A DNA stretch of 64,000 bases from Balanoglossus misakiensis (lineage: Eukaryota; Animalia; Hemichordata), in NCBI GenBank assembly GCA_040954595.2, contig CM082584.2:10816552-10880551 (forward strand). Reading direction: 5' to 3'. Of the stretch, positions 8,091 to 45,115 are shown piece by piece; the stretch's first letter is position 1; every line of letters starts with the position of its first letter. The notes below the pieces were generated by a model that saw only the letters and a program-made list of their open reading frames with translations, ran no database searches and was not told where the DNA came from. Both the position numbers and the translations under genes were made by a program.

Positions 8091-9820
8091 ATGAGACGTT
8101 TTGTTGGTATCACCGCTGGATTTTGCCTTCTTGTGGTCGTTGGTGTGTTACTATTCCTCTTGCAATATGGTGTTGTTAGTGAGTATGTTTTATTGCTTAA
8201 ATATACCTCATGCTAATACTGTGTCGTGATTCGCCAGAATCCGTCACGTGAAAGGAAAACTGAGGGAGAGCTACCGGTAGTTTTTTTCACTCTTAGTACA
8301 ACGAGAACATAATAGACATAAAACAGATGAAAGAATTGCACTAAGCCCTTATTTTGAGACATCTGTAAAATGTTTTAAATGAGAGAAACCTAGCCCGGAG
8401 ACACAGGCGTATTCTAGATCGGCGCCTGTGTCTCCGGGCTAAGAGAAACCCCAAATATGACTATGAACGTTTTCTACTGCCAGATATCGGATACAAATAT
8501 GACATCGTCGCCAACGTACCACTGTTACGTTCGACAGTCGGGGGAACTACTGGGAAGACGCCAAACACAAGGGAGAGTTTTGAAATAGCGGTACATACTG
8601 AAACTGGCAATCGGGGCGGTGAAGGGCACACCACCTCCATCGGTACTGTAGAGCGGTCGACACATTCATCCCAAAACGATACAACGGTTGGCGAAGCTTC
8701 CAGCACTGAAAACGTGGTAAGGATCTCACTGACTAGCTACTTGTGTGTGTTCAACTGTAAAATTAATGTAGTTTATTGCCGTACCTATTCCCCTACCCAT
8801 TTCTATCATCTGCCGCACCTGTGCCCATGGAAACACCAATTGCGGCGCTGGTGGCGCCGTAGTCGCTCCAGCTGGCTTAAAATATCGTTTTCCACTTTTT
8901 AATTGCCCCATTAGAATTGGCATATTACATGTATTTAACAAAGAGGATAACTTATGATTACCATTGGAAGTACAGTTCTCTAATCAAGTGAATATTTTTC
9001 TTTAATGTCCTTCTTTATCCAGGATATTCTTGACGATATTCATAAAAGACGAAAAGCCCGTGTAAATAGTGCGTGCCAAAAACACAGCGAACTTGCGCAA
9101 AAGATTGACCCTGGTCTTTATGGCCATTTGTTGGTTGACGACACCTACAAAGTGATTTACTGTTCCGTGCCAAAGACCGGGAACTCCAACTGGAGACGAG
9201 TGTTTCTCGTGTTACGGGGAGAGTTCAATGACACTTCAGACGTGAAGGCAGGTGTCTACAGCTTCAAATATCAAACCCTGGGAGAGTATTCACCAGAAGA
9301 GCAAGACAAACGGCTGAAGACTTACACAAAATTTATGTTCACAAGACATCCCTTTTCTCGAGTGCTGTCGGCGTACATCGACAAGTTTGTGGAAGAACCG
9401 GACATGTCAATAGTAAAGAAGTACATCCCAAAATTGCAGAAAATAAACAACTCTTCCAAATTATTTTCTTACACGTTTAGAGAGTTCGTGAACTACGTAA
9501 TCCAGACAAACCAAACCGAGTATGATCCCCACTGGTCTGTGATCGTCCGCTTCTGCAACCCGTGTGCCATCCATTATGATACCATAGGTGAATACGAAAC
9601 ACTGGAACAAGACGCCAAGTACATACTACGGCAAATTCACGCCGTGGGTGTACATTTTCCATCAATAGTTCCGCACCAAACGAACAGCTCGTCTCAAAAC
9701 AAGCTGAAGAAATATTACAGTACGCTTACAAATGAGCAAGTGAAAACATTTTATGCGCGATATAAACTTGACTTCGATGTTTTTGGTTACAAAGCCGATG
9801 ACTATTACAACATGACATGA
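8091..9820 (+). CDS. Carbohydrate sulfotransferase copy 2, ~372 aa. Exons 8091-8178, 8484-8716, 9023-9820
   Basis: Same exon structure (88-nt coding part of the TM exon, same phases) and motifs as copy 1. Confidence 0.9.
8382..8450. mobile_element. 51-bp minimal MITE (8391-8441) with 19-bp perfect TIRs and a 9-bp TSD AGAGAAACC
   Basis: tagcccggagacacaggcg (8391-8409) and cgcctgtgtctccgggcta (8423-8441). agagaaacc at 8382-8390 and 8442-8450. Confidence 0.9.
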
Positions 9821-10497
9821 TCTTGAGGATCGACCGGCCCATATGATGATATCCATATTTTCCGCGCATTGCTCAAAACTATTTTTCATAGCGACGCACT
9901 CTTTCGCTTATTAAAACAAATAAACAACCATTTTTACACGTTTCATATTTTAAATGGTGACAATTCTTTTTGTCTTAAGACTTCAGTGCTTGTTCATCAA
10001 AGCTCTTATACATAATACATGTAATTCACAATTCACTCCCCCCCCCTTTTCATGCCTACAAAAATGACACAACCATCTCCCGTTTGCCTCACCCCACTTA
10101 AAATCGAACAGTCTTCTATGGAAGTGTTTGGGGCCCATCAATCCTCCCGATAACACTTTGAATCGCGCAGGAAAAAAAACATACGGCCGTGCTTCCAACC
10201 CCGTAAATAATTGGTCGCAACTGTTCGACATAAGAGAACACTCAGTAAGGATAATGTGGTATTCCAATGAACTACCCGAACAAGACAACACTGGATTAAT
10301 ATACAGTAGCATATGTGAGTACAGCGTTAATTCTATATCCATGTATATCATGCTTTTCTTATAAAAACAACCTCCAATTTAAGAGCAAATTATTACAAAA
10401 TATTTTGCTTTTGGCGGGGCCAAATCCGTGTATTTTTCACGTCAAATGTGTTTAAAATAGTTTGATCAAATCATCTTTTCTTTCATTTCAGGCAACC

Positions 10498-12073
10498 ATG
10501 ATTCAGTCGAGACTGAAACGACTCACTGTTATACAGTTGTTCGGTTGCCTGATCGCAACAACTGTCGTAACTGTGATTTATTCAGGATATACTGGTGAGT
10601 TTCGTGAAATGGCTCGCCCAGGGGGACACTCGTCCTTAGAGATTTGAATGACCATGAAGAAATACTGACATCCTACTACACTCAAACAAACAGTTCATCT
10701 GGCTCAGTAAAAAACACGTTTAGGGCCAAATCTTATATCTTCAGACTTGCGTTTTTAATCAAAATCGACGACGCATTTGGTATACAGTTGCATGCTTCTT
10801 TATAGGCGTGTTCACCTTATGACAAATATTCTTCAATTTAAACAATATCGTATTTTTGACAACCCAGCCAAGAAACAATGTTTTGGGCTTATATTATCCG
10901 CTTTGGGGTATAAACGCGCTCTTTTAGCACGCATTTGAATGCACAATCTCTTTTTTGGCAGCTGACCTTCGCCATGAACAGCAGCAAGCAGACAAAAGGG
11001 AACATTCACAGGGAACAACTACCGAGCCATGGCAGCAGACATTTGAATCTGGTGTGAACGACAAAACGGTAAGTAAGGTATTGATATTATCGAGTATTGA
11101 AACACGTACCAGGTGTTTAAAGCACAGTCCCTCAAGAAAGAAGGTCTTTCTTGAGGGACTGTGGATTTACATATGGTCATATATGATGAAACTGGCCATT
11201 TTTATGTTTCATATATATACGGGTTCAACCTTTTCCCCCAAATTGACGCTGCTCTTCTGAATTTCGGCCTATTCTTTTTCACAGCAAGAGATGGAAACCA
11301 TTTTCAGAGAGCGAAGTGAGCGCATTGAGAGAATATGCAAGAAATATCCGGAGGTCTTCAATGGAACACCACGTCACATAGACCTTCTCATAGACGACGC
11401 ACACCGCATTCTCTACTGTCCAGTTGCAAAGGTCGCAAGCTCAAGCTGGAGACGAGTGTTTCTTATTCTCGGAAAGGTCTTCCCAAATATTTCAATGATC
11501 CGACACGTCCACAAACAGAAGTATCCAAACTTGGGTTCATATGAACCACGCGAAAGGTCTTACCGATTGCACAACTACACAAAGTTTATGTTTGCTCGAC
11601 ATCCGTTTTCGCGGCTATTATCAGCCTACAGAGACAAAATCGTAAACAAACATAATTTTTTACTTGAAGTAACTAAATTACTGGGCTATAACACATCAGA
11701 CGCACATCGGAACATAACATTCGGCGACTTTGTGGAATATCTGCTCAGGAAGGACACGACAGCGTACAACGTACACTGGGGGCTCGTCTACGGCCGATGT
11801 CACCCTTGTTTCATAAAGTACGACATTGTTGGAAAGTACGAAACCTTGAGTGAAGATTCAAACTACATAATCTCAAGAATAAATGCCAGTGGCATTGAAC
11901 AGCTTCCGAATATAGTCCCACACCGGACCAATAGCTCCTCGCTTGCCGCAAGTCAAGACTACTTCAACAAACTGACGCCGGAACAAATCAACGGACTGTA
12001 CAAGAAGTACCAACTTGATTTTGAGCTCTTTGGTTATGAAATTTCTGACTTCGTTCCAGTGAATCAAAGTTAG
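10498..12073 (+). CDS. Carbohydrate sulfotransferase copy 3 (more divergent), ~330 aa. Exons 10498-10594, 10962-11068, 11285-12073
   Basis: TM anchor, YCPVAKVASSSW, FARHPFSRLLSAYRDK, CHPCFIKYDIVGKYETL, YQLDFELFGY. Same intron phases as copies 1 and 2. Confidence 0.9.
11123..11163. repeat. Perfect 19-bp inverted repeat with a 3-nt loop (intronic)
   Basis: cacagtccctcaagaaaga-agg-tctttcttgagggactgtg. Confidence 0.9.
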
Positions 12074-12888: not shown

Positions 12889-13146
12889 ATCCCTGGCAGC
12901 CATATTGGATCATGATATCCCTGGCAGCCATATTGGATCATGATATCCCTGGCAGCCATATTGGATCGTGACACAAATTGAACATTAATAGCATAGAACA
13001 TTGTCTTTGTGCTAACACATTTTGACATGCATGTCTAGGTCATGCTAAACTATCGACATTCCAAGTTCAACCAAACTGGTCAGACATGTCAGAGAAACAG
13101 TTCTGGGGAAAAAATGTCAAAATGGCTGCCTGGCAGCCATATTGGT
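12889..13146. repeat. 28-bp tandem repeat (~2.8 copies, 12889-12967) plus a related palindromic unit at ~13119-13146, part of a dispersed repeat family
   Basis: Unit atccctggcagccatattggatcatgat. aaaatggctgcctggcagccatattgg at ~13119. A related inverted copy lies at ~44880-44915. Confidence 0.8.
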
Positions 13147-16600: not shown

Positions 16601-19081
16601 TGGCATGTCAAATTCACCATAATAAAATCTTGAATACAGAAGTGTCTGTTATAGCCTCTCTTCATTAGATCAGTAGAGGGCGATAATGCATGCTTCCTAA
16701 CATTTCAGCCATGAAATCTGAGTGACGATTTTTGGTCCCTTATTGATCCACATCAAGCAAGGTTGTAAACGTACCCTGATATTGGCCTGTGATGCCAGTA
16801 CCTCAATGTCCTCCGAGACAATTTTCAATGCAGCTTCGGACAATATGAAAACCGCCATGGTTCTCATGGGCGAGTCGTCAAACGTATGCAAACACTGCAT
16901 GGATAGCTGAGCTGTCTTTACTCGGTCAAATTGCTGATGAAAAAATAAAACAGAAGTTCTTTTCATTGGTGCAGAAGAAAGTAGCATGTCGTGAGTACTA
17001 CACCAAGTATTTAACAGTTTTGGCGTTGTGGTTTGATTCTACTGCAAGAGTGGACATGAAATCACTCACCGCATCTCTCAACACAGTGTCGTTGTACAGG
17101 ATAAGCAGACAGTTCTTCTGCAGCTGTTGGGTGAAAACAGTTACAGTTGTTGTACATTATAAACAGGCCAGGTCATTTCATTGATTTGCAGACGTGCTTG
17201 CTGTGTGAACAACTAACTATGCTACCACATGGCCTGTTGCCCACACAGGCAACAGTTCCAAAGAATGTTGCCTAGGAATCATATGTATGCCATTAAACTT
17301 ACTTGCTGGCTGTACGGGAATGTTTGCATGGCAGCTAGAGTGAGCTGAACCAACTCACTGAGTATAGATATATGCATTTGGTTGGACAGGTGACCTCTGG
17401 CCATGTTGAACATTGTTGCACTGTGGAAGGAAAAATACGAGTTATAAGATGCAGATGGTGATAACTTGGAGGTAGGAGAAGGATGAAAGGGGAACACAGA
17501 TGGGGAGGGAGGGAGGGAGGGAGGGAGAGAGTAAGGATAGAGAGGGGAGGGTGTCTGTAATGACAGCTCAGTGACTAATCCGCAAAAAATGATTTATCAT
17601 CACACTTTACCTGCCAGCCATCTGTATTCCAAGATGAGACGGGAAGTTTCTCAAAGTGCCAAATATGGCCTGCAACAAGAGTCAGAATATTAATAGTTTA
17701 CTTAGTGTTTTGAAGTCATGTACATTCAAGTGGGTATAAAACCCTTTTGACCACATGAGGGCGCTATGCACATAGTGGTACAATGGGGTGACAGTCTTTC
17801 ATCTATGGAGCCTTTTAATCTGAACAATGTAAATGGATGTGCTTACTTTCAGCATGTCGTGTGGAATTTCTTCAACGCCTTGTGTGAAGTTGAAGAGACT
17901 GAAGAGGGCCTTGTGTGAATAGTTAGCCCTGGTGCTGTACCGTGTTAGGGATTCACGTAGTTGGGGTAGAGTTGCATCGCCTGTGATCTGCGCCAGAATA
18001 CAGAAAGTTAATCAATGTAGTTTCTCAGCCAACTGGTACTGTACACAAGGTTTTGTAAAAATCATAACCTTCAGGTGGCCTGACTCACCTTAAGATCTGA
18101 TCTGTATTCTGTGTTATCTTCATCAGCTAGGTAGTCCACTTGGCATAAGGAGGTAAGCATCAATCCTAGGAAGTTCAAGTGATGATGGGAGTCTAGAAAG
18201 GCTTTCAAAATGGCCTCTTCCACACACTCCCATCCGGACAGATCAAGAGATGTGATTTTGGGGATGAAGGATGGCATTTCAAGGAGACTGTTCACTCGCT
18301 TTTTCAGCAGGGGGTCGTTGATGGTGCGAGCGGTGTCGTTATTGGCCCGCCTGGAGATGTCCAGGTGTCTGAGTTGTGTCATGGCCGCCAAGTGATTGAA
18401 GGTCTCGAAGGACACTTTGATATCGGCCATTGTCAGCGATTTCAACCTCTCTCTGCAGTGTTCGAGCGATCCGATGCTGTCCACGTGCGTGTGGGAGATG
18501 TCCAAACTCTCCAGAACGGGCAGCTTGCTGACCAACACGTCCAGCACGCTGCTGTCCACCTCCGTCTTGCTGATGTTCAGGTGCACCAGCGACTGCAAAC
18601 TGCACCACAGCTGCGACACGTGCTCCGGTTCGCGGAAATTCGTGAAGGGGTTCACCCCGCAGCAGTTCAGCGCCTGCAAGTTCGACACAGTCCACTCCCC
18701 GAGCGCTTCCAGGACGTTATTCCCGCTGATTGTTCGCATGATCCCGGATACGTCTAGGTCGATCAGCTTGTGCTTCTTCAGGTAGTACAGGCCAAGTGGT
18801 GTTATCTGGGCGTTTTTCAGGCACACTCTCCGCAGACTGGTCTTCTTGGGGTCAGCAAAGAGACTAAGAGAAACATCATCCACTTGTTTCCTCTCCACTA
18901 GATTTTTCAGGAGGCCGTCAGCCAGGTCAGGATGGAGCGAGAAATCCGGGTGTTTGAAGTGCAACTGGGCATGTACCCCATTGTTGTCTACTGTCACTTT
19001 CTCACACAGTTCATGTAAATTATCAGTGATGAAGTCAAGGCAAAGGCCTTGAAGTCGTGCTGGGGAAGCTCTTGACAACAT
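13652..19081 (-). CDS. ZYG11: ZYG11-like CRL2 substrate receptor, paralogue A, ~745 aa, 12 coding exons: 19081-18089, 17987-17847, 17669-17611, 17420-17303, 17123-17070, 16933-16775, 16080-15919, 15783-15736, 15378-15308, 14730-14601, 14371-14221, 13803-13652
   Basis: BC-box (PARLQGLCLDFI), LRRs, and ARM region with LSALWNLTDEC, NNVAEV, EVGYFAAG, VAYRSF, QLWAVWA. FAAG and VAYRSF favour ZYG11 over ZER1. Exons total 2238 nt, in frame. Confidence 0.9.
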
Positions 19082-19776
19082 CTTGAAGACAGTGGTGGTG
19101 TATTGGTAACCTGAAAAAAGAGTTTGAGAAATGCGGCATCATGTATTTCATCATATCAAATCAATTTTATATACATGAAATATCAGTCCTGTCTTGACAT
19201 GTGAAGATCTAGCTGTGGTATAACGCAGCTGTACCGTTGGGGGGGGGGGGTGCGTTACCAAAGCTAGTGAAGATTGAGATTATTTTTCTGGGCCTGGTAA
19301 TTATATCATACTATAGCATGCATCTTGACATTACGCAAGACACCACACGGAGCAGAACTGTTTCATCACAACTTGGGGGGGGGGGGGGGGGGGCACCGAA
19401 AACAACTTGTGTAAGATGGACACGGGGGGGGGGGGGGGCATACGTCTTCTTGAAATCCTTTGCAGTCTTCACATCCGGGTTTGGCAATATATATAGGGCA
19501 CAGCATGCACGAAACTATTATTATGTAGTTTGTGACTTCACAACAGTAGTCACTATTAAAAAACAGCTCAATTAATGCACTGGAGTAACTCCAGATTATT
19601 GGGGTTAAGTAAATTTTATTGGAATGTTTCATAATATGCAAACTACTATTTCTATGATAACACTAACAGTAACACTAAGTGTAGTAACGATCGTAATAAC
19701 ACCACCTAACTTGAATAGCTATTAAAAATATCGGATAAAACGTTTTCCCAGACTACATTGATAGTGTATAGTTTAC

Positions 19777-19914
19777 CTTTCGCTGAAATATATTACAGAT
19801 ATGCTTGTGTTATGGCTCTTGCCGTTGAAGTTCATGAAGGGTCACCATCCATCTCCTCAGCACTGCTGGTAGACTGCCATCTTGGTATGTTGGTCACTAA
19901 CGCTAGGGGGCGCT
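19777..19914 (-). promoter_or_regulatory. Probable non-coding first exon and promoter of ZYG11-A
   Basis: Minus-strand donor GAAAG|gtaaac at 19777 could join the acceptor at 19110. YY1-like CCAAGATGGC (19876-19885) and CTCF-like CGCTAGGGGGCGCT (19901-19914). Motif-level evidence only. Confidence 0.45.
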
Positions 19915-21156
19915 CGTTATGTGTGACGCGCAGTCAAAGGAATACACACATACCAGTAAATTGTGATGTTGGAAAAAAAAGTTTCAATTGGTTTTATTCA
20001 ACTTTGGTATGGTACATACACTAGACCTTAATGAACTGGCATGTTAACCACACTCTTGCCAACCCATCCGACCCAGCCACTGCCAATTTTGCATGTTAGG
20101 GTTAGCACACTTCATTGGGGTTCGACCAGTCGCACTGGTTGAACACTCTTGCATTTAAACCCAAATATTGGCCGTGCAGTCAAAGTTTGGCCTTTTTGAG
20201 TCAAGTTTCACTTTACTGAGAATGTTACTCTTGCAAAAAATCTCAAAGGAAGGTTTCTGCTGGCCTTGTCTGTAAATGAAAGAACCACTGTGATTTTCAA
20301 AGATAACCGGGGCTGTACTCCTCCCGCGACTTTTAAGAGGTACAAAGACTGATCTTTTGACAATATTTCAAATTTGTCTCATTCACATTAAAAGTACCCC
20401 TGATCATCGAGAATTCAACATGTTTTGGTCAGCATAAAAAAACATTTACTGTGAAAACACAAATAGTGAAAATACCACCAATTGTTTTCTTGGAAATTGG
20501 AAAAAAAAACTAAGTCGTATGATTTTGCTAACATGTACTACTGTTATTTACTTTTGAGGAACAATTCTATTATTGTATCAAATATTGAAGAAAACTGTTA
20601 CATGATAAATTACAAGTAAAAGTTGATGTTCATGGGAGAAGCATCTTTGTGTTATGGCTCTTGCCTCTTTTCTCTGTGTGTAATGTGGGTTTGATTGAAT
20701 CTAAAATATGATTGATGAGTATAAAAAGACATAAAGCAGCTATCACTGTATGAACTTACATCCCAAAAATTTAATTACGTGTCAAAATCAGGATGCTCGT
20801 TTTTGGCCAAGATTCCGTGTTGTACAAGTAACTTTTTCTACAGACCGATGCAAAGAAATTTGCACAAAATAGTCAAAAACTTGGACTCCAGGTGCCTAAA
20901 ACGCTTGTTTATTGTAGAATACCACAAGTTATAAAAAGTTGGGATCGAGAAGTTGTGAAGGGAGTCAGGAATATCAACTGGAGGGTGGAAAAAAAGAGAT
21001 TCTTTCAGAGGTGGGGTTAGAAGAGATTACAATGCAATGGCAATGACATTTTTTCGAGCAGATTCTTTTCTTCAATCTCTGTGTTTTCACACTGCCAGAT
21101 TTGAGTTATATTGGAAAATAAGCATTACACATACTCTAGATAAGAAGGCTAGCTAG

Positions 21157-24100
21157 CTAATCATCATCAAACCCTCCCCCTAACAGGAAATTTGCTGCTA
21201 AATTCTCGTTCTTTTCACATGCAAAATAAGCTTGAATAACTAGTCCCTCTGGAAATCCCAGCGCTTTCAACTGTAAGAGAAAAGAAAATAAATAAATAAA
21301 TACGTAAACAAATTTTTTTTTATGTGTTTTAAAACAGGTTTTCCAAGAAAATCTTTTGACAAATTCATAGGTTTCTTTCTACTCACTCTCTCAATTGCTT
21401 CTTTTTCTTGTTGTGTGACTTGTATGTAACTTGTTCCGGGACCACCGCTACCACCACCTGGACCACCGGCGGTTAAGCCCTGACCACCGGGTAGCACGGC
21501 TGGACCACCACTCTGTTCTGAACCCGTGCTGCCTGCGTTGGGATCGTTGATCATGCCGATAAACCGTTCCTGGTTTTGACTGATCAACTGGAAAACATCA
21601 CAAGAATCAAAATATTACTGTTATAATGTCATCAACCGAAAGCATGAAATTGCATATTGCTATCACACTGCACTCTCCATTTTATTTGTCCCACGAACAG
21701 TTGCTGAGTGATGTGTTCATACCAGTGGCAACCTGTGATGTAAGCTTACCTGTAAGAGTTGTGGATTGGATTGACCTAACTGTTGTAATAACGCTGGCAA
21801 TAACTGTGGGTTTCTCTGAAGGGCTTGCCTCATCTGTAGAAACTGGGGTTGCTGTTGGAGGAAGGCTAGCGGATCTTCACCTGGTTAAGAACACGGAGAA
21901 TAGAAACATTAACCCTTTCACCATCATGGTTTGGTCCAAATCCATTGTTTTCCATGGTATAGCTGGACCTCAAGACATCAAAGCGGGGTTGAAGGGGTAA
22001 AGACCACCTCTCAAACTGGTGTACATGAATACACGTACCCTGGGGGTACAGGTCAGGACTGACTGAGCAAATTTTGACCAATATTGGCCACTGGTGGATG
22101 GTGTCCAAATTTTTGGCCATCCACCTGGACCTGGCTGTTCACCTGCTGATACTGGTGGTGTTGTTGCTGTTGGCGATGTCGCTGTCGTGGCAGACGGTGC
22201 TGCAGTGGTGGTGGTACCGGGCGATGCAGTAACAGCTTGGGCAGGAGCCGACGGCTGTTGTGGTTGTGGGGAGACTGGTTCTTGTTGTCCACCGACTTCC
22301 ATTTCAGCTACCGCACTTTCCGGGATGCCCTAAAAAATGAAAGGTCAAGTGTATCATTTTACTGTCAAAGATCACGTGATTTTCATTCCACCTTGCCTGG
22401 TGGTAACAATCAAATTCACAGGCAAAATAAATTCAGCTGTATGGAAGAAGAACACCGACTTACACTGAGTAAATAATCTACAGCCCTGTCAGGGTTATTA
22501 AAAGCGGCTCGAAGTGCACGCACAACTGGATCTCTGCCATAGCCCATACTCATCAGCTCTGTAACTACACTCTCGTACGCAGCTCCAGTAAGTAACGTCG
22601 ACTCGGCTGCGGACAACGTAGATCCACTTGCTGCTGTTGTGGCTGTGGTGGTGGAGGTGGTTGTCGTGCTAGATTCTGTGCTTGCTTCAGTACTGTTGAA
22701 TCCAAAGACAAAATGTTTTCATCGGTGAAATTTGATAAAACTTTAATCAAATCAACAGTTAATAAAAGTACAAATTTTTCTCTTCATAAATCACCTGGTT
22801 GTCTTGGCTTCTTTTTCTTCCTCTTTCTTTTCCTCTTCTTTTTCCTTTTCTTCTTTCTTCACCTCTTCCTTCTTTTCTTCTTTCGGTTTGTCTACAGTAG
22901 TTTGAGGAGTGGGAGCAGGGGCCGGCGTTTCTGCAGGTTTACTTTCAGCTGGTGGTTCTGTCTTTGGCGCCGCCTTTGGCTGTGATCAAATGGATTAATT
23001 AACATCAGGAACAGAAATGGGAAATATAGTAAAACTCATAAATTTCGTTGGCAACTTGATCACACACATGGTATACTTATTGAAGGATTAGTGTATTATT
23101 ATATATAATTCCCCCGTATTTCGAACGAGTGTGCCTGCGTCGCGGACGAGTGATTCCCCGTATAGCGGCCGTATCCCTCCGAGCCACAGGCGAGGAGGGA
23201 TACAGCTATACGGGGAATCACGAGTTCGCGACGCAGGTACACGAGTGAGGAATACGGGGGAATTATATGTTTATCACATACATAGATCCGCTTATTTTGA
23301 TTTTCAAATAAATCTCTTTTTGGTTGCGATAAAATTTGGAACTATTTTGCGCAAAATTGAAGATCGATGTTATGCGGTCTATCTGTCAGGTGACTCAGGT
23401 CACGACCTGGACGATTCTGGTTTTGGCGATGACCCGTCTGTCGTACATCAGCTGTCGTACATCGTCCGTCAAGGTTTCACTGGAGCAGGAAACCTTTCTT
23501 ATGCCTTTTGCTTTATGACTGGACCGTTTTGCTCTAATCGTCGCATCAATTTTTTTGCGAATACTCAAATTTGTACCTGTCGCTCGTTCGACAACGCGAC
23601 AACATTGGCTCAGCACTGACGACCTCGCGACAGTTTTGGTGCCGGTTGGTGCGATAAAAATGTACACAGGTAAAACTAATCGTCGATCGTCCATATTTAC
23701 ACATGCGAAACATTTTATTTATCTTTGCTTATTTTTTAATATCGAAATAAAACCAACAATTGCACTGAATTTTGTCGCCCTAAGAGGACTTTGTTTACAA
23801 GTTTAAAATAGTTCCGTTTGGTGACGTCAGAGGGATGGGTATTACAATAACGCTTGGTGCAAATTTACCTACGTCTGACGTCATACTATGGTATATGCGG
23901 AGCTATGTATGTGATAATAACCTATACAACAATTATCGTCTGTACAGAATACCAACCTTTGTAATCATAACCACTACAAAACTGTCTTCACTAATATTAT
24001 ATTCACTTATAACTTTGTCATCTGCCAATATTTTTCCTGCAAGGAGAAACAGGGTCAAATTATCACTTCAGGTGCACACTAGTCTCCTCAGTACAACTTT

Positions 24101-24672
24101 TCAAACCATCCCACCAACAACAATGCACTGGATGAATAGCAAATATATAATACCACTCTTACAAATTTGGAACACACTAAGTTCTATCATTTCACTTCAT
24201 GTTAATAGCACTACTAGTCTAGGTTCATGAATTAAAGCACAGATCACATCATGACACACATTCTTTTCCAATTTGCTACTGCCTCCTGTAATAATCCTCC
24301 AGGTGCATTTCAAGACATCAAATCATGATCGTGATGCATAACAAAACCATTCATACATCACGTGTATTCAAAAACTCAACAATACCTGCATATATCAACT
24401 TCTGGCCATTTGCAGGAAAGTCCGTTCCTTTTGTTTCTTCTACTTTCTTTTTCAAATCCTTGACCTGGAAATTCGGTGCACAAGAAACTTGAAACGGTTG
24501 AATTTCGAAATATCCATAGAAGGGAACAGGTCCACATGCTTTATACAGATGATTCAGCATTAGCTGCATATTTACAACATAGGTCTTTCGGAACGTACGT
24601 ACTCACCGTTTGACTCGGCTCAACTTCCACTTTAAAAGTTTGCTGTTGCAAGGTTTTTAGCGTGATAAGCAT
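21157..24672 (-). CDS. RAD23: UV excision repair/ubiquitin shuttle protein RAD23, ~423 aa. Exons 24672-24607, 24464-24386, 24036-23957, 22979-22795, 22692-22464, 22329-~22143, 21880-21750, 21587-21387, 21270-21157
   Basis: UbL ([14 protein letters not shown]...QKLIYAG), UBA1 ([23 protein letters not shown]), XPC-binding region ([12 protein letters not shown]), UBA2 ([13 protein letters not shown]...[16 protein letters not shown]). The exon-6 donor is ambiguous. Confidence 0.95.
21909..22000. mobile_element. ~90-bp MITE-like repeat with a TTAACCCTTTCA end. Related copies at ~2205-2290 and ~39865-39952 (opposite orientation)
   Basis: Shared core ttaaccctttcac..catggtt..gtccaaa...ggta...acctc at three loci. 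The copy at 21909 ends in an imperfect inverted ggttgaaggggtaa. Confidence 0.65.
23096..23920. mobile_element. Non-autonomous foldback element in RAD23 intron 3, with a 166-nt hairpin and an internal complementary region
   Basis: Hairpin 23103-23268. 20/21-nt inverted repeat 23271-23291 vs 23897-23917. CpG-rich relative to the flanking intron. No recognisable protein. Confidence 0.75.
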
Positions 24673-24790
24673 TTTGATAGTTGGTTTCTGTCGACGGATG
24701 TGTGCACGTAAATAAAATCGTTCAATTTAGATGGGAAAACCCGCCACAATCGTTCAAGCACGCAGGAGGTTCACACACGAAAATACATGT

Positions 24791-24860
24791 CCGCCATTAC
24801 AGTGACGTCACGGGAGAGGCTGTGCGCGCATGCTTGATCAAAGTCTCGCTTCTCGCGAGT
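24791..24860 (-). promoter_or_regulatory. RAD23 proximal promoter motif cluster
   Basis: YY1-like CCGCCATT (24791), CRE GTGACGTCAC (24802-24811), NRF1-like TGCGCGCATGC (24823-24833), TCTCGCGAG (24851-24859). All 120-190 bp upstream of the ATG. Confidence 0.55.
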
Positions 24861-25425
24861 CCCGGTGAGACTTTTTGGGGCCTAGGGCTGGTTCACTAGA
24901 TATCCAGTGGGGTGGGGTGGAGGATTTTCGGGGTACATTTACACTGATATTACTCAGGCAAATGTTTCAAAGCTTCACCATATCATGAGTGTATCGATGC
25001 CTTCCAATGTGGTTAGGACTGTGTTCGCCATTGGTTCAGTATAACCTGGGATTGTACATCTGTACGCGTATAAGGGACTGGTCATTTTCTCTCGTCGGGA
25101 GGGTCACCCTGTTTTGGAAACCAAATGCTCCATGGTGGTTCAGAAGCGAGTGTGTTCGTTGCATTACATTCACCTCCCTATCACTCTGACACAGCACAAA
25201 TGCATAAAAGTGAAATGGGAATGTCTGTCGTTAGTAATGACCGTATTATATCATTCTTAAAATAAAACCCACTCAATTCCCATTGTATCAACAAAACGTT
25301 TAATCATGAATCAATGTATTTGAATTATTTCTGTATACAATAACATACATTTCTGCATATGTGTATAAAGATGTTCAGTTCAAGTGAAATGTGTAACTTT
25401 AAATCATGCTTCATTAAAATTGTAA

Positions 25426-26634
25426 TTATTCTCCGAATTTAAGCTGTTTTTTGTCAACAGACACCTCTTTGTGCAACTCCTTGGCTTTATTCATAAACTT
25501 TTCTGCCAGCCCCTGATTTTTCTCCACACCATCTCCCAGTTTGTACATTCGACTGACATTCACACAGGCATACATGTGATCCAGATCACATGCCTTCTCC
25601 GAGTAAATCCTGGCTTTCTCCATGTCCTTTGGGACTGTTCCTAGACCTTGCAGGAAAATAGCACTCAGCATAAAGCAGCTCTGAGGGAATTTTTGATCGC
25701 ACGCTTTTGTGAAGAACTCTGCTGCTTTTTCCACTTCTCTTTCTTTTTTCACATTCGCCAATCCAGTGCCGTGGATCATTCCCAGGTTATGGCAAGCTCC
25801 TACGTTGTTGCCATCACACGCTTTCTGTAAGTACTTGTATGATTCTTCTTTGTTTTCTTCCACGCCTGAAAATAAACAAAAATTATAACATCTATTTAAA
25901 TGGAGAGTTGCTGCAACTTTTGATAATATGTTCAGTATTTCTACTTAGTGTATATCCACTACATTTTCTTGTTCTACTCCCTACGACGTTGACATATCTA
26001 CCGGTAGTAGTCAGCTTTTCACTACAGCCTATACATGTATACCAGCAATGTTACTGACATTAGCCGGGACTGAAATTCAGATGAGTATATGTTGAGTATT
26101 TACCCTTGCCAACCATATATGCTGTTCCTAGTTTAAAGCATCCATCGGCACTGTTCAGTTCATCACACGCTATTCTGTACGCCTCAGCTGCATCTTTGAA
26201 ATTCTTCTTTATCCCGGAATAGTAATCACCAAGCCGAACACAACCTTTAGGGAAAAATCACACATCAAATTCAAAACACCATGTTTGTAAAGATGTTGCA
26301 AAACTAATGTATGTATGTATGTATGTATGTATGTATGTATGTATGTATGTATGTATGTATGTATGTATGTATGTATGTATGTATGTATTTATGTATGTAT
26401 GATAATATGAATGAATGAATGAATGACTGATTGATTGATTGTATGTACACGTATCACGTACGTCCACCGTACCCACATGTGAAACCACAGTTACTATGGA
26501 TACCGTGCATAGTCGTTAACCACATCATTACCTTCGGGACTCTTTTCTTGGTGACACGCATACATATATTCTATGTGAAGATTCTCAATATAATCCTTCA
26601 CTTGTTCTTCGTCTTTAAAATCAACGGCAAACAT
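25426..26634 (-). CDS. COA7: Cytochrome c oxidase assembly factor 7 (SEL1-repeat), ~227 aa. Exons 26634-26532, 26244-26104, 25865-25426
   Basis: [22 protein letters not shown]-terminus, Cys-paired SEL1 repeats, [15 protein letters not shown], and C-terminal LKFGE. Exons total 684 nt, in frame. Confidence 0.92.
26308..26441. repeat. Compound tetranucleotide microsatellite (ATGT)n-(ATGA)n-(ATTG)n in COA7 intron 1
   Basis: Directly visible. Confidence 0.95.
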
Positions 26635-26639
26635 TCTGA

Positions 26640-27032
26640 TGATTGTAGACGGCTTGAAACTGTGATGATCATCTACCGACACCGGCAAGCATGGCACGTA
26701 GTAACTATTATGGCAGTGACCCAGTGTGACCTTTGACCTCAATAAGATTTCTTCTGAAATATCTTTAAATGGTAATGATTCTTTTATTGATGTTACCATA
26801 AAAATAATGCACATTAATTTATTTTAATCGACATTCTAATTTTCACTCCTCAACGAGGAGTTTGAAAAAAAAAATTATTTGACCTTTGACTGTTTATCTA
26901 TCAAAACATGGCGGCGAGGCGAAGGTGTAAATTGCGTTCTCTGAGCTGAGTCAATGGTATGGTGAACGGGTACAGGGCTTGGCGATCGAGAATCACGAGT
27001 GCTTTTTCCAACATTCCCGATTTCAAATACAG
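26640..27032. promoter_or_regulatory. Probable bidirectional promoter COA7/ZYG11-B and first non-coding exon of ZYG11-B
   Basis: Divergent genes. YY1-like AAACATGGCGGC at ~26904. Donor CAG|gtaagc at 27033 could join the acceptor at 27644. DR1-like TGACCTTTGACCT at 26727. Confidence 0.5.
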
Positions 27033-27647
27033 GTAAGCTTATCGCTGATCGCCAATGCATGCAATGATTATTGAGCGATGAGCGACGACGTACCGTCGCT
27101 ACCGATGCTGTGATGGGAACCAGTCAGGCTAGTGGGAAAAAAACATAATGGTGTCAATAAAACATCTTTCGAACATTCAATATCTGACTTTCAAAAAAGA
27201 AAACTGTGACTGATTCAAATGCGTTATTTATTGCATCACACATTACATACATGTACTTCCATATATGGATAAAGGGGCGTGTCTAATCATTGTAATGGAC
27301 ATGTGGTGGGCGTGGCGCTAAGTGAAAGTCTGTGATTGGCTAATCTTCACTGTTCATGCATGGAACCAGCAGCGCCATACAGTTACTATGGTAACTATGA
27401 CTAAATTTTCATATGGGACCATATACTAGTATATGATTCACATGATGACAGTACACCATGGTAACGCTTGGACCATGCTTGGACACACCCAACTGTATCC
27501 ATAATGGAAAATTATGCCAAAAATAAATTTGAAAATTTATGTACTCATCCCAAAACATTCTTCATAAATCAGAACCATGAACATTGGTCCATTGGTCCAG
27601 TGTACTGGTGCAGCCCTTGTCTGACATTTTTGTTTTCTTAACAGAGA

Positions 27648-30600
27648 ATGGAAGCAATGGTAGCTTTGCCAGCCGCGCCGGTGGTTGCCACGGCATCACC
27701 GTGGTCGTTGCAGGAGATCTGTCTGGAGTACATCTCGGAGAACTACCACCATGTGTGCACAGACAGAGTCCTGGGCGACCCGGGCAAAGGTCTGCAGTTC
27801 TGCGTGCCCGACACGGTTCTCAACATGGAGCTCTCGGAGATCTTGCTGAGGAAACTGGCGGAGAAGAAGAAGGTCACAGACCGAGTCCTGATGCTCTTTG
27901 CCAACCCCGGTTCGACCATGCTGAAAAGAGCCTGGCTCCGAGGCTGCGACATCACAAGTGACGGACTGGCGGCCCTGGCCAATCACAGGTTCAGTGAACT
28001 AGACGTGTCTCGGCTAAAAAATATCACCGTTCAGGATTTGCTTAGAGTCTTTGGGGAAAGGGGCTTCGAGCAGTTGAAAAGTCTGAACATTGGCTGGCTG
28101 GATGTGTGTCGGACAGACGGCAAAACAGCCGACAACGAGGACAGCATTGTGAAACAGCTGTCGCTTTGGACCAAGCAGCTGGAAAGTTTAGATATCTCGA
28201 TGGCCGGCGTGGAGACGTTGCTCTACCTGCACAATTTCAAGAAGGTGCCCCTGAAAGCCCTGACCGTTTTCCACACCAGCGTGGATTTCTCGGACACCCT
28301 CCTCTTCAAGGACATCGTGAAGTTCCGCAGCCTGCAGCACTTGGACATTTCGCTGGACTCCAAGTTGCACGTCATCGTCGACTACAGCCGGGACACATTT
28401 TGTAAATTTCTCGAACTCCCGGCTGATCCGTTTTTACCCCAGCTGACCTCTCTAGACATATCAGGCAACAAGTCGGTGAAGGAATCTTCGTTGAAGATTT
28501 TCTACGACCGACGACCAAAGATCAGGTTCCTAGGTCTGACCTTGACAGACCTCTGTGAAGCCGAGTTCTTGACTGATGAGGAACATGTTGATTATAGACC
28601 ACATGTTAAGGCAAGTGGTGATATACTTTCTTCTCACTTTTGGGCTCCTGCTTTATACAAATTATTTTCTGTTATTGGCCAGAAAAGAATAGAAAGTACA
28701 TGTATGTAAATATGGCCTTCCATTTTCTGTAAAAAATAACTTCAGGTAACTGGTCACTACACAGAGGAACAGATCTTGGAAGGATTGAAACGATACACAA
28801 ACAGACCATCATATTTACATCAACTGCTTTCCTACCTCTTTGATAAAACACACTTTTCAGAGCAAGCTCAGTTGGACATTATCAGGGTAAGTATTTAGTT
28901 ATCCAGTTTGTGGTTTTCTTGAGAGAGGAGGACTGTCTGACCTGGAGACAGAGACTGACTGACTGACTGACAGACACTTCTTAAGATTGTTGTTAAGCTG
29001 TTCTTTTGCATCATTACAGCTTGTCATGGCCGTGATGAGGAACTACCCAAATTCACTTGGAATTCAGATGGCAGGCAGGTAATGACCAATCAGTGATTAT
29101 AGATGGCAATCCATTTTGACCTTGTATGGTGTGACTGACCCAAGATTCTTTCTTAAGGTTTCAATGACATATATGAAACTTATGAGCTGATGACACTGCC
29201 AGTTGATTCGTCTGTTCAAAGTTCCCTTACATTAAAAAAAAATCACTTGATGCATTTGTCTTGCAGTGCTTGTCTGTACAATTTGACCAAGTATGAACTT
29301 AGTGATGGAATCCACGTGGCCATGTTACGGGAACTCATCAATATCGTCCTTGATGCCATGGCAACCTTTCCAGAACGAGGACAGGTGAGTTGGCGTGTTT
29401 TGCGGAAAATGTTGAATACCGGTAAATGTAAACAGCACAGATGCAGTGAATGGTTGACATGGTTAGATTTTGCCAGTGTTTGTGCCAGTGTTTTTTTCAA
29501 CATATTTTCTTTTCGTATTTTCAGCTGCAAAATAACTGCATGTTAGTCCTTAGGAATGAACGAATTCTATACGATGTGGTAAGTTACACTCTAGTGTACT
29601 TGAAGAATTAAATAATAAAGAATCAATTCACGAACAAATGAATGAATGAATAAATGAATTCTAGTTATACAATAGATGAGTTGAGAAGTGCCAACATTGT
29701 CTTGCCAAAGTTGTTTAAGGGTTACTTCATTAATTAAATGATAATGGTTAAAGAAATTAAGATCAACAACTCACCATTTGCCACCAGAGTGATAACATGG
29801 TTTTGTGTTTTTCCTGCAGACTTTTGATTACTTGAGAGCGTCGCAGTTAACAATGCAGTGTCTGACGGACTATGATGACCACTCCATGTGTAGAACTGCC
29901 TCCATCATCACCTCCATACTTGTACATAGACTGACAACCGATCAGAAAGCTCTTCTCGGAACAACCGAAGTGATTGAGGTAAGTACATTGTGACATTTAC
30001 ACTTGCTTACACTTTCATGCTGATTATCCACTGATGCATCAGAACTGATGTGTAATGTCTTCACTTAAAATTCATGATTTATGTTGGAAACTTTGTATCT
30101 CTAACATACAAAAGAAACTGATGGACATGATACGAGAGAGAGTGGAAGAAGGCATTATCAACACAATACTGAAGATGACAATGAAGATCCTTTGGAGTCT
30201 CACAGATGAACTGCCAGGCATCTGTACTGCCTTTATCAATGCAGGAGGATATGACCTCTATCTTCTCATTCTTAATGTAAGTTTCTGACAAGGTCAAGTT
30301 GACACGAATTGTATCTGTAGAAGTATGTACATCAGAACAAACACTCTTGAACAACTGCATCAGAAGATCAAAGGTCCATATATCTTCACCCAAAGATGTG
30401 AATGCACCAATATATTGGCATAGAACCATTGAGATGAAGTGTTTAACTGTACCTTTTTCTTTTCCTTTTTTCCCCTGTGATATCTTACAGACATTCTATG
30501 AAGAAGCTGTTATCCAGAAGAGAGCCTTAGGTTTATTTGTACGTATGAATCTATGCAATGTTTATTTAAATTTTTTTATCAGCAATTGAAGAAAGGTAGA

Positions 30601-31707
30601 GTGGTGTAACAGACTGAGTGCTAGACAGACAGGGACATGGAGGAAGGAGATTGTTAAGACAGACGGACAACCAATCAGTCAGAGAAGAGAAATTAAGAGA
30701 GAAAGACAAAACTTTGACAGTAGTTGTTTTTCCTTACACTTACAGAGCAATGTTGCTGAAGTGAAAGCATTGAGGCCACAGCTGATGACCCCTGACCTCA
30801 TGAACCATGTCAGGTAAATACAATTGTTGCTATAACAACAATCACTGACATTGTCACATCTCTAAGAACACTGCCCAGTCACGCCCATGCCAAAACCATG
30901 ACCATGAGTTTGTTGAACAGACTAAGTTTGACGTTACTTATCCCACATGTTCTGTCATGGTTTCATGAACGATTTCATTTGGATGTATTTTGCACAGAAT
31001 TGCCATAGAAGAATCGGACATTGAAGTGGCATATTTTGCCGGAGGTATTCTTGCCTTGCTGACCAGTGAGGATTCACAAGCATGGACGTTGCCCATGGCA
31101 ACAAAAACACAGTTACTCAAGGCACTGGTATGTCAGCCCTATTAACATGGACATGTGATACAAATATTTAGCTAGATACCGATTCTAATGCATTTATAAC
31201 TAATTACATGTATACTGATATTCCATCAAAACCCCAACACTTTTTCATTTTTCTCCCTGTAGTATGACAAAATATTACAATGGGGAGACTACACAGGGAG
31301 ATTGGTGGCGTACAGGTCATTTGGGCCAATCATCTATCTCCTTGCGTGTCAACCAAATGCAGGTGCACAGCTCTGGGCTGCATGGACTCTCTGGCACACC
31401 TGTGCTAAGAAACGTAAGTTCCGAGTTGTGAAAATTATTGCGGATACCAAAAGGGGTGCTGTTAGTAATTATGCCTGTAATGTTTATCTTTGTTTATCCA
31501 TCATCAGCCAGAGTTGGTCATGTAGACAATTGATTGATGTTACAATTTCCTCACACAGCTGAGCGGTACTGTCAGATGCTGCAGAACGAGGGCGGTTTGC
31601 AAGTCCTTCAAGAACTCCTACAGAAACCTGAACTGGACGTGGAAGTCAGAAGAGTTACACAGAAAATACTGACAGTCAATGAACAATACCGCCACACCAA
31701 AAGATAG
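27648..31707 (+). CDS. ZYG11: ZYG11-like paralogue B, ~733 aa, 12 coding exons: 27648-28610, 28746-28886, 29020-29078, 29267-29384, 29525-29578, 29820-29978, 30115-30276, 30491-30538, 30746-30813, 30998-31127, 31263-31413, 31559-31707
   Basis: BC-box PWSLQEICLEYI, LRRs, LWSLTDELP, SNVAEV, EVAYFAGG, VAYRSF, QLWAAW. Internal exon sizes (141,59,118,54,159,162,48) are identical to paralogue A. The first coding intron needs a GC donor. Confidence 0.88.
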
Positions 31708-34700
31708 GGAACCCCTTCCTGCCAACTGTTTCAACAATCTTCAAGGTGCCAAGTTTCAGCTCGTATAACCGAAGCCCATTCAGGAATTATTTATCAGATA
31801 CCAGAAGCAATTTCCCGTGTAAAGGCAGAAATAAATCAATATTTAACTACAGTACAATGTCCACCTTGCACCGAAAAAGCCTTGAATATCAAACAAAATG
31901 GCTCGGACAAATATGGCTGCCAACAGAGAACAATTGACAATCAAGCCTACAATGTATTTCATTGCTTCATGTCACTTGATCAACAATTTTCATTTGAAGG
32001 CTCACATGTGTACTTAGAGAAATAGTTAGATAGTGATGTCTCGTGTTGAAGTGTTATTTGCAGGTGAACAAGCGTCCTTTTAAATGTACATTTTATTGTA
32101 AAATTCTTTCTTTCTTGCAGTGTTTGAAATATAAGTACATTTACTTTCTTTTTTATTCAAAGTTCAATCTTGAGGTCTCAGACACTTACACCCTTGATCC
32201 GTAGTATGGCTAACTTAACAGAGGATAGATTCATAATCATACAAAGTTTCACCCTATTATTGATGCGGTAAAACCTTCACCAGAATGTGATATTGTATAA
32301 ATATCTTAGGTACTGGAAAAACATCCATTTGTCCATGGTATTTTATTTGTATATGGAATTGACAATCAGGGATTTTTCTTACACTCTATGTCTTCCCTAG
32401 TGTAAATGTCAATAACAATGGACAACATATATTCCAGTTCTCTCCGCCATGATATCTCAACCACAATAATATGATCTTTGCAGTACCCCAAATCTCTGTG
32501 GTCAAATGCTAACCTAACATTGAAGTACTGACTGCCAAAATCAGAAATTTTGTTCGATGAGGTTTGTGTCTTGTAGGGTAGGCCAGTTTTCGTAATCTCA
32601 GGTAACATATCAGTTGATCTACCGACACTGTGTAAATGTTTTTATTGGTAATTTTAATGGTGCCCATGTGAACTGTGTATAGTGATTGGCAAATAGTCTG
32701 TGCCGTGGCATCTTGTTGAAATGGAATCGTTGTGCTAGCTCTGAAATTCTTTATGACTATTGCAGTCTGTAACTCTTGGTAGGTTGTGTAATGTGTGTGT
32801 GTTTGTGTCAGTGTGTATCCAATCAGTGCTCAAAGTCAGTGGTTTGAATTTGAAGGTGACCGATTTTAGTGTAAAATTATTAAGATCATACATATCATAT
32901 AATGCCAACAACCATTGCTTGCAGTGAGGAGATACCTTACATTGTGATGTTGTTACAGGATTGTCTTTTCTCAGTGTTGAGAACAAAGTGGGGTACACAG
33001 TTGTTGTTGGTATCTTAGATTGATGGGGTGAATGTGTCTTGGTTGGGAAAAGTGAAGCTGTATTTCTCGATGTAGTCATTTCAGTGTTCGTATATCATGC
33101 GAAAATAATATGGTCCTTTGATTTTGTGTATGTACTGATGAAGTCCCTATATGTCACGATGACCTTTTGCCTATTGGTATTGTGTAGGAAGTTGGTGGTA
33201 AATGTAGTTTGTGGTCTTGTACAGTGACACTTTACTGACTGATAGTAGTACTAGCTCAGAACCCTGTCCTTTCATGCCTCTACTAAAATACAGCTGAGCA
33301 TTGTACATTGAACTTGCAAAGCTAACTGCCTGAAATCTTGTCAGAAAATAGAAATGTAACTTAATACACCAAAGTCTTTGAAGTCATGGAATGTCATTGT
33401 ATGTGTATTTGTAATTTTACTGAAAGTGTACTTTATTTGATTTGAAAATGTTCTGTATATATCTTAATTTTAATTAAATTTTCTTTGGAAAATAAAAAGT
33501 GTTTAAAAATGTCCAAGAGGCTTTTTAAGATGTCTTTTTTCCAAAGTCAAAGTAGCACTTTGTGGGCTGGTCATAGGGTATAGGAGACTTTCTTATGCTG
33601 TAAACCCACAGAGTCCAAGCAGATTTTGCTGAGATTGAAACATTGCATACCATGTAGCATCTATTATTGTATCTATGGTTAGACGTCTAGTCATAGATGT
33701 ACTACAATAGATGGTACAAAACAAAAATTCCTGCATGTCTCTGCACGCTTCATAAGCCACCATACATTCGTGTCAGGTAACGACGCCCCCACACGACGAC
33801 TTCCTGCCATTGGTTGCCCTGTGACCTGCGATGCCAGACATTACCAGTGCGATCATTCGCTTGGTGGGCGTATGAATGTTCACCGGAGAAAAATGACGTT
33901 TTAAAATGCCGAAATAAGTAGCTGAATTGTCGCGACTGCGACAGACGCATCCATAATGGACATGTAAGTCACAATAAGTTGTTTTTACACGGCCGATCTT
34001 TCTTTCGGGAAGTTTTTTTGCGCATCACTTAACATTCAATGGCTGCCGATTCGGGCGATTGACGTTGCACACCCAGGCTACACGCACTGCGATTGACGCA
34101 GATGCCGGGTACTTGGTGGTGTCTTCACGATCGTACCTCGAACTTAGCCGGTACAGTATTGTTACTGCCGGTTACGTACACAATTTACACTGTGTACTGA
34201 TAAGTTGAAAAGGGCAAGATTTGTGATTTCCCACACAGTCACCAGACATTCATCACTGTACACATAGGCTTACACCCCTCTACATTTAATTACAAAATGC
34301 TGTGTCTCTATTGCTGGTCCAATCATGAAAGGATGCTGGCTGTTGAATACACTTCAAGCACTGGGGCAAGGTGCAGTGCCTCAGAAGGCCTGTCCCCATA
34401 GGGTAAATCATCCACGCACCTGTTCCATACATGTCTCTTTCAAGAGGAAGTGACCAATCAGAAGCATGCTTACAATACAAGAACTCTCCTGGGACACACT
34501 GCAAGTGCAAGCACACATGCAAATACCTCTGACATGACATCATGCATTGGGCTCTATCAATGGTTGCAGTTTAATCATTGACACAGACAAGAGATAATTT
34601 AAATGTATAATGTTCATTTAGGTTAATATAGATAATCGGTGTACAATTAGAGAAATGTGATGGTTGCTTTCCGCTTGATAACTGATATTTTCTACCTGTA

Positions 34701-35846
34701 CCTACCACATGTGCCATTAGTCAGGTTTTGTCATGGCTAGGCTGTTACGCAAACAGTTAGCCAGTTGTACCTTCAACTGTCAATTCTCATGTGCAAAAAT
34801 AAAAATCCTTGAAACTAATTACAGAAAAGGAATAACAGTGGGCACTCTGTTGATTACCGAAAATAATGATGGGTAATTCGTCCTTGTGAGTGAACACGGG
34901 TCTTTGGTTGCTAAGGATTCTAGAGAATCGCTCATGGCTGACTTCAATGAGATTCATGATATTTATGGACAGAATCATTTTCACGCATTGTGTATGTGAG
35001 TCTGTGGGTTGGTCGTGTCTCTCTGAATCCGTACTTGGTGTGTCGTGATGCGACTCGTGCTATATTTAGACTGATCACCATATCTCTCCCCCCTATTCAG
35101 ATCAGCATTACCAGTACATGAACAATATATCGCAGTGTGGTAAAACTCAGTATAGTAAAAACAGGCTTTTGTTTCCTTGCGCCCAACATTACTTGAAGTT
35201 TTTTTTACAGCCACGGAGCACAGCAAATATTTGTTTTGTTTTGTTATACTGCTAGTGCTTCTGCGCCCTAAATTTTTGTCCTACTTCTGTCAAGTTCTGG
35301 TATTGGCTCTTTCATCATTTAAAACACAATGACAAGAGTATATAAATTAACCCTTTCATTTAGTGATATTCCTCAGTAACTATCCCAGTGTCTATGCCCC
35401 TTCTAACGTCTATAAAATCATAATTCAAATAATATTCTCCTTTGTCCTAACAACCTGCGTCATTAATGAGCTGCTCGGTACAAAGGTGGACACCTTATCA
35501 GTTGCGTGGAATCATGGGTGGACACTGTTTATTTTTTGCTTTAAATCCTCATTATGATAAATTATTACGATTTCCCCATTCTGACAGTCTCTCTGAGACA
35601 CTCCTTCAGGAAATTTGTATTTGCCATGGCGGGGAAGTACCCACAGTTTTTACAGAGTCATTGTAACCATTGTCGTTGGCTGCGTCACTTCTTCTTATAC
35701 TATTAGTATTAACGCATTTCCTTTTCCCAAATGCTCTTTGTCTTCTGTGTAAAATCACCCCCAGCACCACATCATAGCTTCACCAGAATTTTCTGTCAAA
35801 TACATATGAAACATATTCTCTTGTGTGTGTTTTTTCCAGAACGACT

Positions 35847-44874: not shown

Positions 44875-45115
44875 TTGCGATATGATCCAATATGGCTGGC
44901 AGGCAGCCATTTTGTTATGTATTTTTCATGCCCACAACTCTTTCTCAAGCATGATTAAACTGATTTCGTTTACTCACTATGAGTTAAGTAGTGTACAATT
45001 ACACTGGTACTTTGACATTCCTGGAGTAATTTTGTTAATGTTGGCTTTGTTGTATGCATAGGAACAACTTGTGGCACTGTGCGATCCAAGATGGCTGCCT
45101 GACAACCACATTGAC
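44875..45115. repeat. Inverted copy of the GGCAGCCATATTGGATC repeat family
   Basis: gatccaatatggctggcaggcagccattttg (~44885) and gatccaagatggctgcc (~45083) match the reverse complement of the 12889-13146 motifs. Confidence 0.65.

Follow-up and report, generated by a model that had tools for sequence, protein, structure and literature searches.

The window, by which we mean the whole 64-kb stretch of Balanoglossus misakiensis DNA that was analysed, contains on its − strand a gene whose exons match the Pfam ubiquitin and UBA families, and which we take to be of the RAD23 type. The intron between these exons is 977 nt long and is mostly occupied by an element without genes, one end of which lies 38 nt from the donor site. 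No second copy of this element was found within the 64-kb window. The two features are delimited as follows.

22980..23956, − strand: host intron of the gene with ubiquitin-like and UBA domains (Pfam ubiquitin and UBA matches in the flanking exons)
23094..23918, + strand: whole element, from depth steps and loose contig ends (runs X1–X3) and one near-full-length contig with another left flank

A number of other features are present in the window. An 891-bp stretch (41666-42556) has perfect 28-bp terminal inverted repeats with TA at its outer ends, and resembles a Tc1/mariner-type MITE. Three diverged copies of a 60-bp repeat (2226-2292, 21909-21971 and 39887-39954) end in GAAAGGG followed by TTAA, which in our view resembles a piggyBac-type terminus, and a short repeat built around the palindrome ATGGCTGCC occurs twice (13092-13145 and 44887-44946). 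Additionally, two tandem sets of three frames each, one sulfotransferase-like and the other ZYG11-like, were identified (5214-12073 and 18071-36893); for the one frame among these that was searched, no close relative of >55 % was found.

Extent and mobility of the element

The element is one mobile, gene-less, high-copy unit that is present in one allele and absent from another. Its ends were mapped using public contigs that derive from other copies. Among the 14 left-boundary contigs listed, six break at 23094, five at 23098 and three at 23099; among the six right-boundary contigs listed, one breaks at 23917, three at 23918 and two at 23919. A previous reading of the DNA, made from the sequence only, had treated positions 23096 to 23920 as a single unit, which is upheld, whilst the ends are moved to 23094-23099 and 23917-23919. 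The unit length is 819 bp, and the interval 23094..23918 takes in both copies of an imperfect 6-bp terminal direct repeat.

Summed contig depth inside the element was 25,000–221,000 in run X1 and 3,300–24,500 in run X2, compared with 83 and 31 in the flanks (public contigs, two runs of one sample). Such depth is not equivalent to copy number, and an excess over the flanks of 100- to 1000-fold denotes a large family. Runs X4 and X5, which gave pieces at a depth of <3, were left out. Moreover, an 841-nt contig covers 23098-23917 with a different left flank, and represents a second full-length copy elsewhere. In both runs we also identified an allele without the whole element, in which 23073 is joined to 23926. 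This allele is diverged, with ∼20 flanking nucleotides replaced, and is not a clean empty site; as such, the target site cannot be fixed from it. No end-to-start (circle) joint was present among the 12 and 5 joints listed, which come from assembled contigs, where rare forms are dropped.

With respect to coding content, neither a tyrosine recombinase (YR) profile nor Pfam matched the open frames of the element, confirming the earlier statement that it holds no recognisable gene; no YR remnant was detected in the element or in the window as a whole, nor was reverse transcriptase or RNase H found in the two element frames scanned. With sequence patterns specific to the family, 0 loci were obtained from the viral collection and likewise from the metagenome and genome collections, and no parent element of the family was encountered.

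Hairpin, inner mirror copy and strand signature

Three parts make up the element in order: an end hairpin of ∼170 nt, a 25-nt inner repeat at the foot of this hairpin, and the partner of the repeat at the far end. These parts, together with the features that they contain, are located as follows.

23101..23270, + strand: long terminal hairpin, with outer arms 23101-23166 / 23205-23270 and inner arms 23171-23185 / 23189-23203
within 23123..23248, + strand: four tandem GA/GA loops, at 23123-24/23247-48, 23127-28/23243-44, 23148-49/23222-23 and 23181-82/23192-93
23179..23195, + strand: hairpin tip core, in which the three-base loop 23186-23188 is ACA here and GCA in most copies
23251..23295, + strand: inner mirror copy of the joined ends, comprising the hairpin foot 23251-23270 and the inner repeat 23271-23295
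23822..23883, unstranded: two TGACGTCA palindromes, at 23822 and 23876, 54 bp apart
23893..23917, + strand: far-end partner of the inner repeat, 23/25 complementary to 23271-23295

The observation from which this work started, that one internal segment is complementary to both ends of the element joined, proved accurate: the reverse complement of 23251-23291 corresponds to 23897-23917 (20/21) and then, 2 nt on, to 23103-23120 (18/18). The part matched at the left end belongs to the foot of a far longer hairpin, which has a 4-by-1 internal loop (23167-23170 opposite 23204) and a folding z-score of −14.2 against 200 shuffles. The inner repeat arm begins on the first base past the hairpin, and the 25-nt repeat that it forms with the far end scores 40, compared with 34 for the best of ∼2000 random 35-mers from the window. 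The inverted repeat is asymmetric, and the element possesses neither symmetric terminal inverted repeats (TIRs) nor a classical target-site duplication (TSD).

All of the two-base loops in the hairpin (4/4) consist of GA opposite GA on the + strand, for which the chance expectation under the base composition is ∼9e-8, and the oppositions in the outer stem are four G-T and no A-C on that same strand. Among the variants listed, none falls at a GA loop position. At the tip, 23186 carries A>G at a depth of 24566/25104 in X1 and 8094/8237 in X2, producing a C-GCA-G tip with the loop of a GNA mini-hairpin. By a narrow margin, the folding model favours the + strand for the hairpin (−70.6 versus −66.8 kcal/mol for the − strand), and for the tip alone it favours the − strand (−14.9 versus −13.1); nearest-neighbour models of this type, we believe, do not include terms for tandem GA steps and GNA caps. 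A search of Rfam returned four sub-threshold hairpin matches, which were taken as chance. Tandem GA steps are described as stacking strongly in DNA (PMC8163305), and GNA mini-hairpins as very stable (PMC13037366).

Closer to the right end, a 10-bp inverted pair had been reported at 23822 and 23874. The pair exists, but can equally be described as two copies of the self-complementary 8-mer TGACGTCA, which occurs four times in the window, two of these being at 23822 and 23876. We take the palindromes to be CRE-type sites, and they possibly represent a promoter remnant of the parent element.

At the mapped ends we identified a candidate terminal direct repeat, with the following copies.

23094..23099, + strand: left copy, TATTAT, from the modal left boundary and the register test
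23913..23918, + strand: right copy, GATAAT, from the modal right boundary and the register test

No exact duplication exists at the ends of the element at the window locus, as mapped from the 14 left and 6 right contigs listed. The absence of a clear TSD noted beforehand is therefore correct for an exact duplication, with the rider that the two 6-bp copies match at 4/6 positions and stand at the two commonest contig boundaries; other registers give 4-5/6 within the same AT-rich stretch. We consider it likely that this repeat is real and, similarly, that its left copy derives from the target. In the register that the mapped ends define, the joined ends read TTAT at the point at which the inner copy has AC, which makes them longer by 2 nt, and the predicted end-to-start junction has TTAT between GTGATAA and ATATAATT. 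Because the joined ends exceed the inner copy by these 2 nt, the inner copy is a pairing partner and not a template of the DIRS type.

Elements of the same layout in other collections

A metagenome collection was scanned with a pattern that combined the tip core with two CGAG words outside it, such that neither the far partner nor a YR formed part of the pattern. This yielded 30 loci, 22 of which have a long hairpin (21 with an arm score of at least 35, and L032 at 28). Sufficient downstream DNA was available for 16 of the 22, and 8/16 have a 3′ inverted partner at p <0.01. In 6/16 (L030, L032, L033, L040, L042 and L050, the partner in L033 being judged by eye) the far partner begins at the hairpin foot and bridges both ends. 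The partner in L035 lies in the hairpin arm and that in L031 further on, the abutting partner of L031 being weak. On the 5′ side, which served as the control, an inverted partner was found in 1/12 loci (L047). These like-built elements are unrelated in sequence to the window element beyond short words (blastn, no match at E <0.1).

The loops of the metagenome loci comprise 25 GA/GA, 19 other and 0 TC/TC, a distribution that is biased by the search pattern and was left aside; G-T oppositions outnumber A-C by 50 to 28 (p 0.017), which is weak, as related copies and two bacterial loci are included. Six of the hairpin loci (L036, L039, L044, L048, L049 and L054) constitute one family from one assembly and are without an abutting far partner, although three of the six lack downstream DNA. 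Hairpin-only forms that carry a second, reversed copy of the left end were observed at L036, L044, L049 and L065, and in L049 this duplication is a palindrome of >300 bp that takes in flanking DNA; such forms may have arisen by fold-back priming at the hairpin.

Taken by itself, the tip motif lacks specificity. Scans of viral contigs returned 17 and 11 loci with this motif, 0 of which have a long surrounding hairpin, and a YR alignment used against viral contigs produced 37 pattern matches, 0 of them confirmed. On a bacterial contig, a long GA/GA hairpin that shares this tip (L047, 4296-4461) lies between genes and has neither a far partner nor a YR. In four loci of a Bacteroidales bin (L060, L063, L064 and L066), short hairpin units capped by GNA loops are arranged in arrays, and the tip motif occurs among these as well.

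Recombinase sequences accompany three of the hairpin loci. The C-terminal remnant of a YR lies between the element ends of L030 (E 4e-14), YR remnants adjoin the hairpin of L031 (E 2.5e-19), and an open 362-aa YR frame is located directly behind the hairpin of L046 (Pfam PF00589, E 9e-14). The named relatives of the latter are beetle tyrosine recombinases, and by comparison with PMC3212892 it appears to be CryptonI-like. A profile derived from the recombinase of L046 together with its relatives matched 3/22 hairpin loci (including L046 itself) and 0/8 of the others. The full layout and a YR occur together only in L030, as L046 ends before its far end. The YR-bearing loci come from other eukaryotes. 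With regard to orientation, the YR frame of L046 is sense with respect to the GA strand, and those of L030 and L031 are antisense; the direction of the gene relative to the ends is not fixed.

A Pfam search of 120 frames of at least 75 residues from 21 hairpin loci found no Helitron (Rep/helicase), reverse transcriptase or DDE domain, and returned the L046-type YR and host domains. The only mobile-element enzyme met with the layout is a Crypton-like tyrosine recombinase, and in view of this the sequence-only reading went too far in invoking an unnamed enzyme and an undescribed system.

A second family with mapped ends was obtained from a genome collection, where the same pattern returned eight loci. 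Three of these (L059, L062 and L065; contigs CBDBCZ01...) are in a bin labelled Nitrospirales, the contigs of which carry satellite arrays, multi-copy hairpin elements and an apparent LINE-like fragment; the contigs of the three loci resemble animal DNA that was assigned to the wrong bin. Two copies that occupy different sites, L059 and L062, agree at 95.9 % over 738 bp, and their 12-bp far repeat extends to the exact right end. The joined ends of this family hold TATA where the inner copy holds CC, and are again longer by 2 nt. In the register with 2 nt added, a direct repeat flanks L059 as TCTAAG / TCTAAG and L062 as TGTTAG / TCTAAG (4/6); the same register is found in L040 (6/6) and in the window element (4/6), and is not preferred in the single-copy loci L030, L032, L033, L042 and L050.

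Classification and a possible single-strand route

The ends of Cryptons had been regarded as having almost no structure, and we take Eulor5/6 and some of the Crypton consensus sequences in Repbase to have a hairpin end. In our judgement, the window element is probably a non-autonomous Crypton derivative, a likely connection that is drawn by analogy, from its layout and from the YRs of the like-built L030, L031 and L046. Cryptons are described as having direct repeats of 4-6 bp, without a TSD or TIR, and as being outnumbered by their non-autonomous derivatives, and CryptonA families are listed for the acorn worm (PMC3212892). The element agrees with this in the absence of a TSD and of symmetric TIRs, in its candidate short terminal direct repeat and in the abundance of gene-less derivatives. 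For animal Cryptons, Kojima and Jurka (2011) state that there are no terminal repeats, direct or inverted, and the available passages of that paper (PMC3212892) name neither an end hairpin nor an inner mirror copy, unlike what is seen here. The open-access papers searched on Crypton ends, Crypton mechanism and Eulor do not describe the layout, although Repbase, Dfam and subscription papers may do so. The apparent novelty in print lies in the design of the ends and in the mechanism that this implies, and not in the superfamily. The initial proposal of a non-autonomous element is supported, the element being a single high-copy unit; Cryptons were among the partners that it named, and its folded or circular intermediate is plausible.

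From these data we infer a route in which a non-autonomous Crypton would be moved in trans by a YR acting on the folded + strand; taken as a whole, this is possible, with the balance tilted slightly against it. Were the + strand to become single-stranded, the inner segment 23205-23295 would pair with both ends and set the termini side by side, and the splinted ends would form an almost unbroken duplex, interrupted by a small, asymmetric 4-by-2 loop that adjoins the 6-bp core. The recombinase would exchange one strand inside the 6-bp terminal repeat, giving a closed, dumbbell-shaped single-strand circle, and the other donor strand could restore the donor site. The folded junction would recombine with an AT-rich look-alike target, with replication resolving the product as for integron attC, and the GNA-capped tip may act as an enzyme handle or a priming signal. 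The attC site is described as a YR site made from one folded strand, in which unpaired bases set the strand and replication resolves the outcome (PMC3458562), and to this extent is like the proposed model; it is, however, bacterial and a local hairpin, whereas here the putative site would consist of both ends paired with an inner copy from which one of them is 600 nt away. For Cryptons of Chlamydomonas, clean excision with a net gain of copies has been reported (PMC9977147), which fits the single-strand route. Slightly more tentative is the extension to Cryptons across eukaryotes, which may transpose as a folded single strand splinted by the inner mirror copy, with one-strand exchange by the YR and completion by replication.

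The alternative that survives best, although we regard it as rather unlikely, is a non-autonomous Crypton excised to a circle by ordinary double-strand YR recombination. The inner copy would then be a second recombinase-binding site, and the hairpin would have another job, as a cruciform, a circle replication or priming signal, or an RNA structure. The duplex circle is the published Crypton model, which according to a 2026 review has never been demonstrated experimentally (PMC13565253; PMC3212892). YR-driven fungal Starships are reported to form circles (10.64898/2026.09.21.753150), all of the YR and direct-repeat evidence fits, and GNA mini-hairpins are described as marking single-strand priming sites such as ssiA (PMC13037366). 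Left unexplained are the foot-abutting inner repeat that bridges both ends in at least seven sequence-unrelated elements, and the reason why copies of the direct repeat may differ at 2/6 positions.

A derivative of Helitron2 or Helentron (HINE, DINE-1 type) on the − strand, moved by rolling-circle transposition with an HUH enzyme, is considerably less probable. The described members have the same order of parts, with asymmetric inverted repeats (a terminal one at the 5′ end, and its partner upstream of a short hairpin near the 3′ end) and no TSD (PMC3627910, PMC4067079); furthermore, HUH enzymes suit a single-strand logic and the flanks of the element are AT-rich. The sizes differ, however, in that Helitron2 repeats are described as spanning 8-15 bp, the 3′ copy being separated from the end by 20-30 bp (38-60 bp in HINE), compared with 25 bp and ∼170 bp in the element, and the 5′ hairpin, which in Helitron2 involves the 5′ repeat, is absent here (z −0.2 on either strand). 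The T-rich side of the few flanks seen and the G-A features both belong to the + strand, whose hairpin is at the 5′ and not the 3′ end. Helitron2 insertion is T/T and employs a Rep/helicase rather than a YR, whilst the 120 frames of like-built loci contain no such domain and three loci have a YR.

A still unnamed single-strand transposon, or another of the HUH type, that shares a generic G-A hairpin design is improbable: the tip motif is indeed generic, and hairpin repeats of bacteria work with other enzymes (Ssn nucleases, PMC11893778; IS200/IS605), yet no such enzyme is found beside any like-built element. Slighter again are the prospects of a non-autonomous DIRS-type retroelement, in which the inner segment would be an internal complementary region (ICR) templating the missing ends during cDNA synthesis; the sequence-only reading had cited DIRS elements for comparison. 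The ICR of DIRS-1 is described as complementary to the left repeat at its start and to the right repeat at its end (PMC5633606), a layout like that of the element, and DIRS elements also integrate by means of a YR. The element, however, has no inverted long terminal repeats or terminal pair of inverted repeats, its inner segment is near the left end, and no reverse transcriptase was found in the two element frames scanned or in the frames from the like-built loci. Moreover, as the mapped junction of two families is 2 nt longer than the inner segment (TTAT for AC in the window element), the latter could not regenerate it. Two independent adjacent MITEs (23103-23268 and 23271-23917), which the inverted repeats within each half might suggest and which had been named at the outset as the reading that would undo a single element, are ruled out, as contigs from other loci cross the boundary (one of them extending over the entire unit and into a different flank), the element-free allele lacks both halves at once, and no loose end is listed at 23268-23271.

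The ATon elements of Aedes were also considered; these are gene-less and high-copy, with an AT target and an unknown partner, as is the window element, but have short symmetric TIRs, and neither a long hairpin at one end nor an inner mirror copy is described for them in the text consulted (PMC3422177). The ATon, HINE, DIRS and two-MITE readings were all weighed and ranked lower than Crypton.

To what is known of Crypton ends, this analysis adds contig-mapped ends, an element-free allele and a junction that exceeds the inner copy by 2 nt in two families, as well as the occurrence of the design beside a CryptonI-like YR, outside the CryptonA of animals. The layout offers a rule by which to recognise gene-less Crypton derivatives, which look like MITEs or HINEs. 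With a 0.8-kb substrate, mapped ends, and a predicted active strand and junction, the mechanism of Cryptons becomes testable using oligonucleotides and one enzyme, and a recombinase of eukaryotes that recognises structure might be of use for the insertion of single-strand DNA. If the proposed route is true, single-strand recombination akin to that of integrons or CTX would exist in animals, and this would explain how Cryptons excise cleanly and at the same time multiply.
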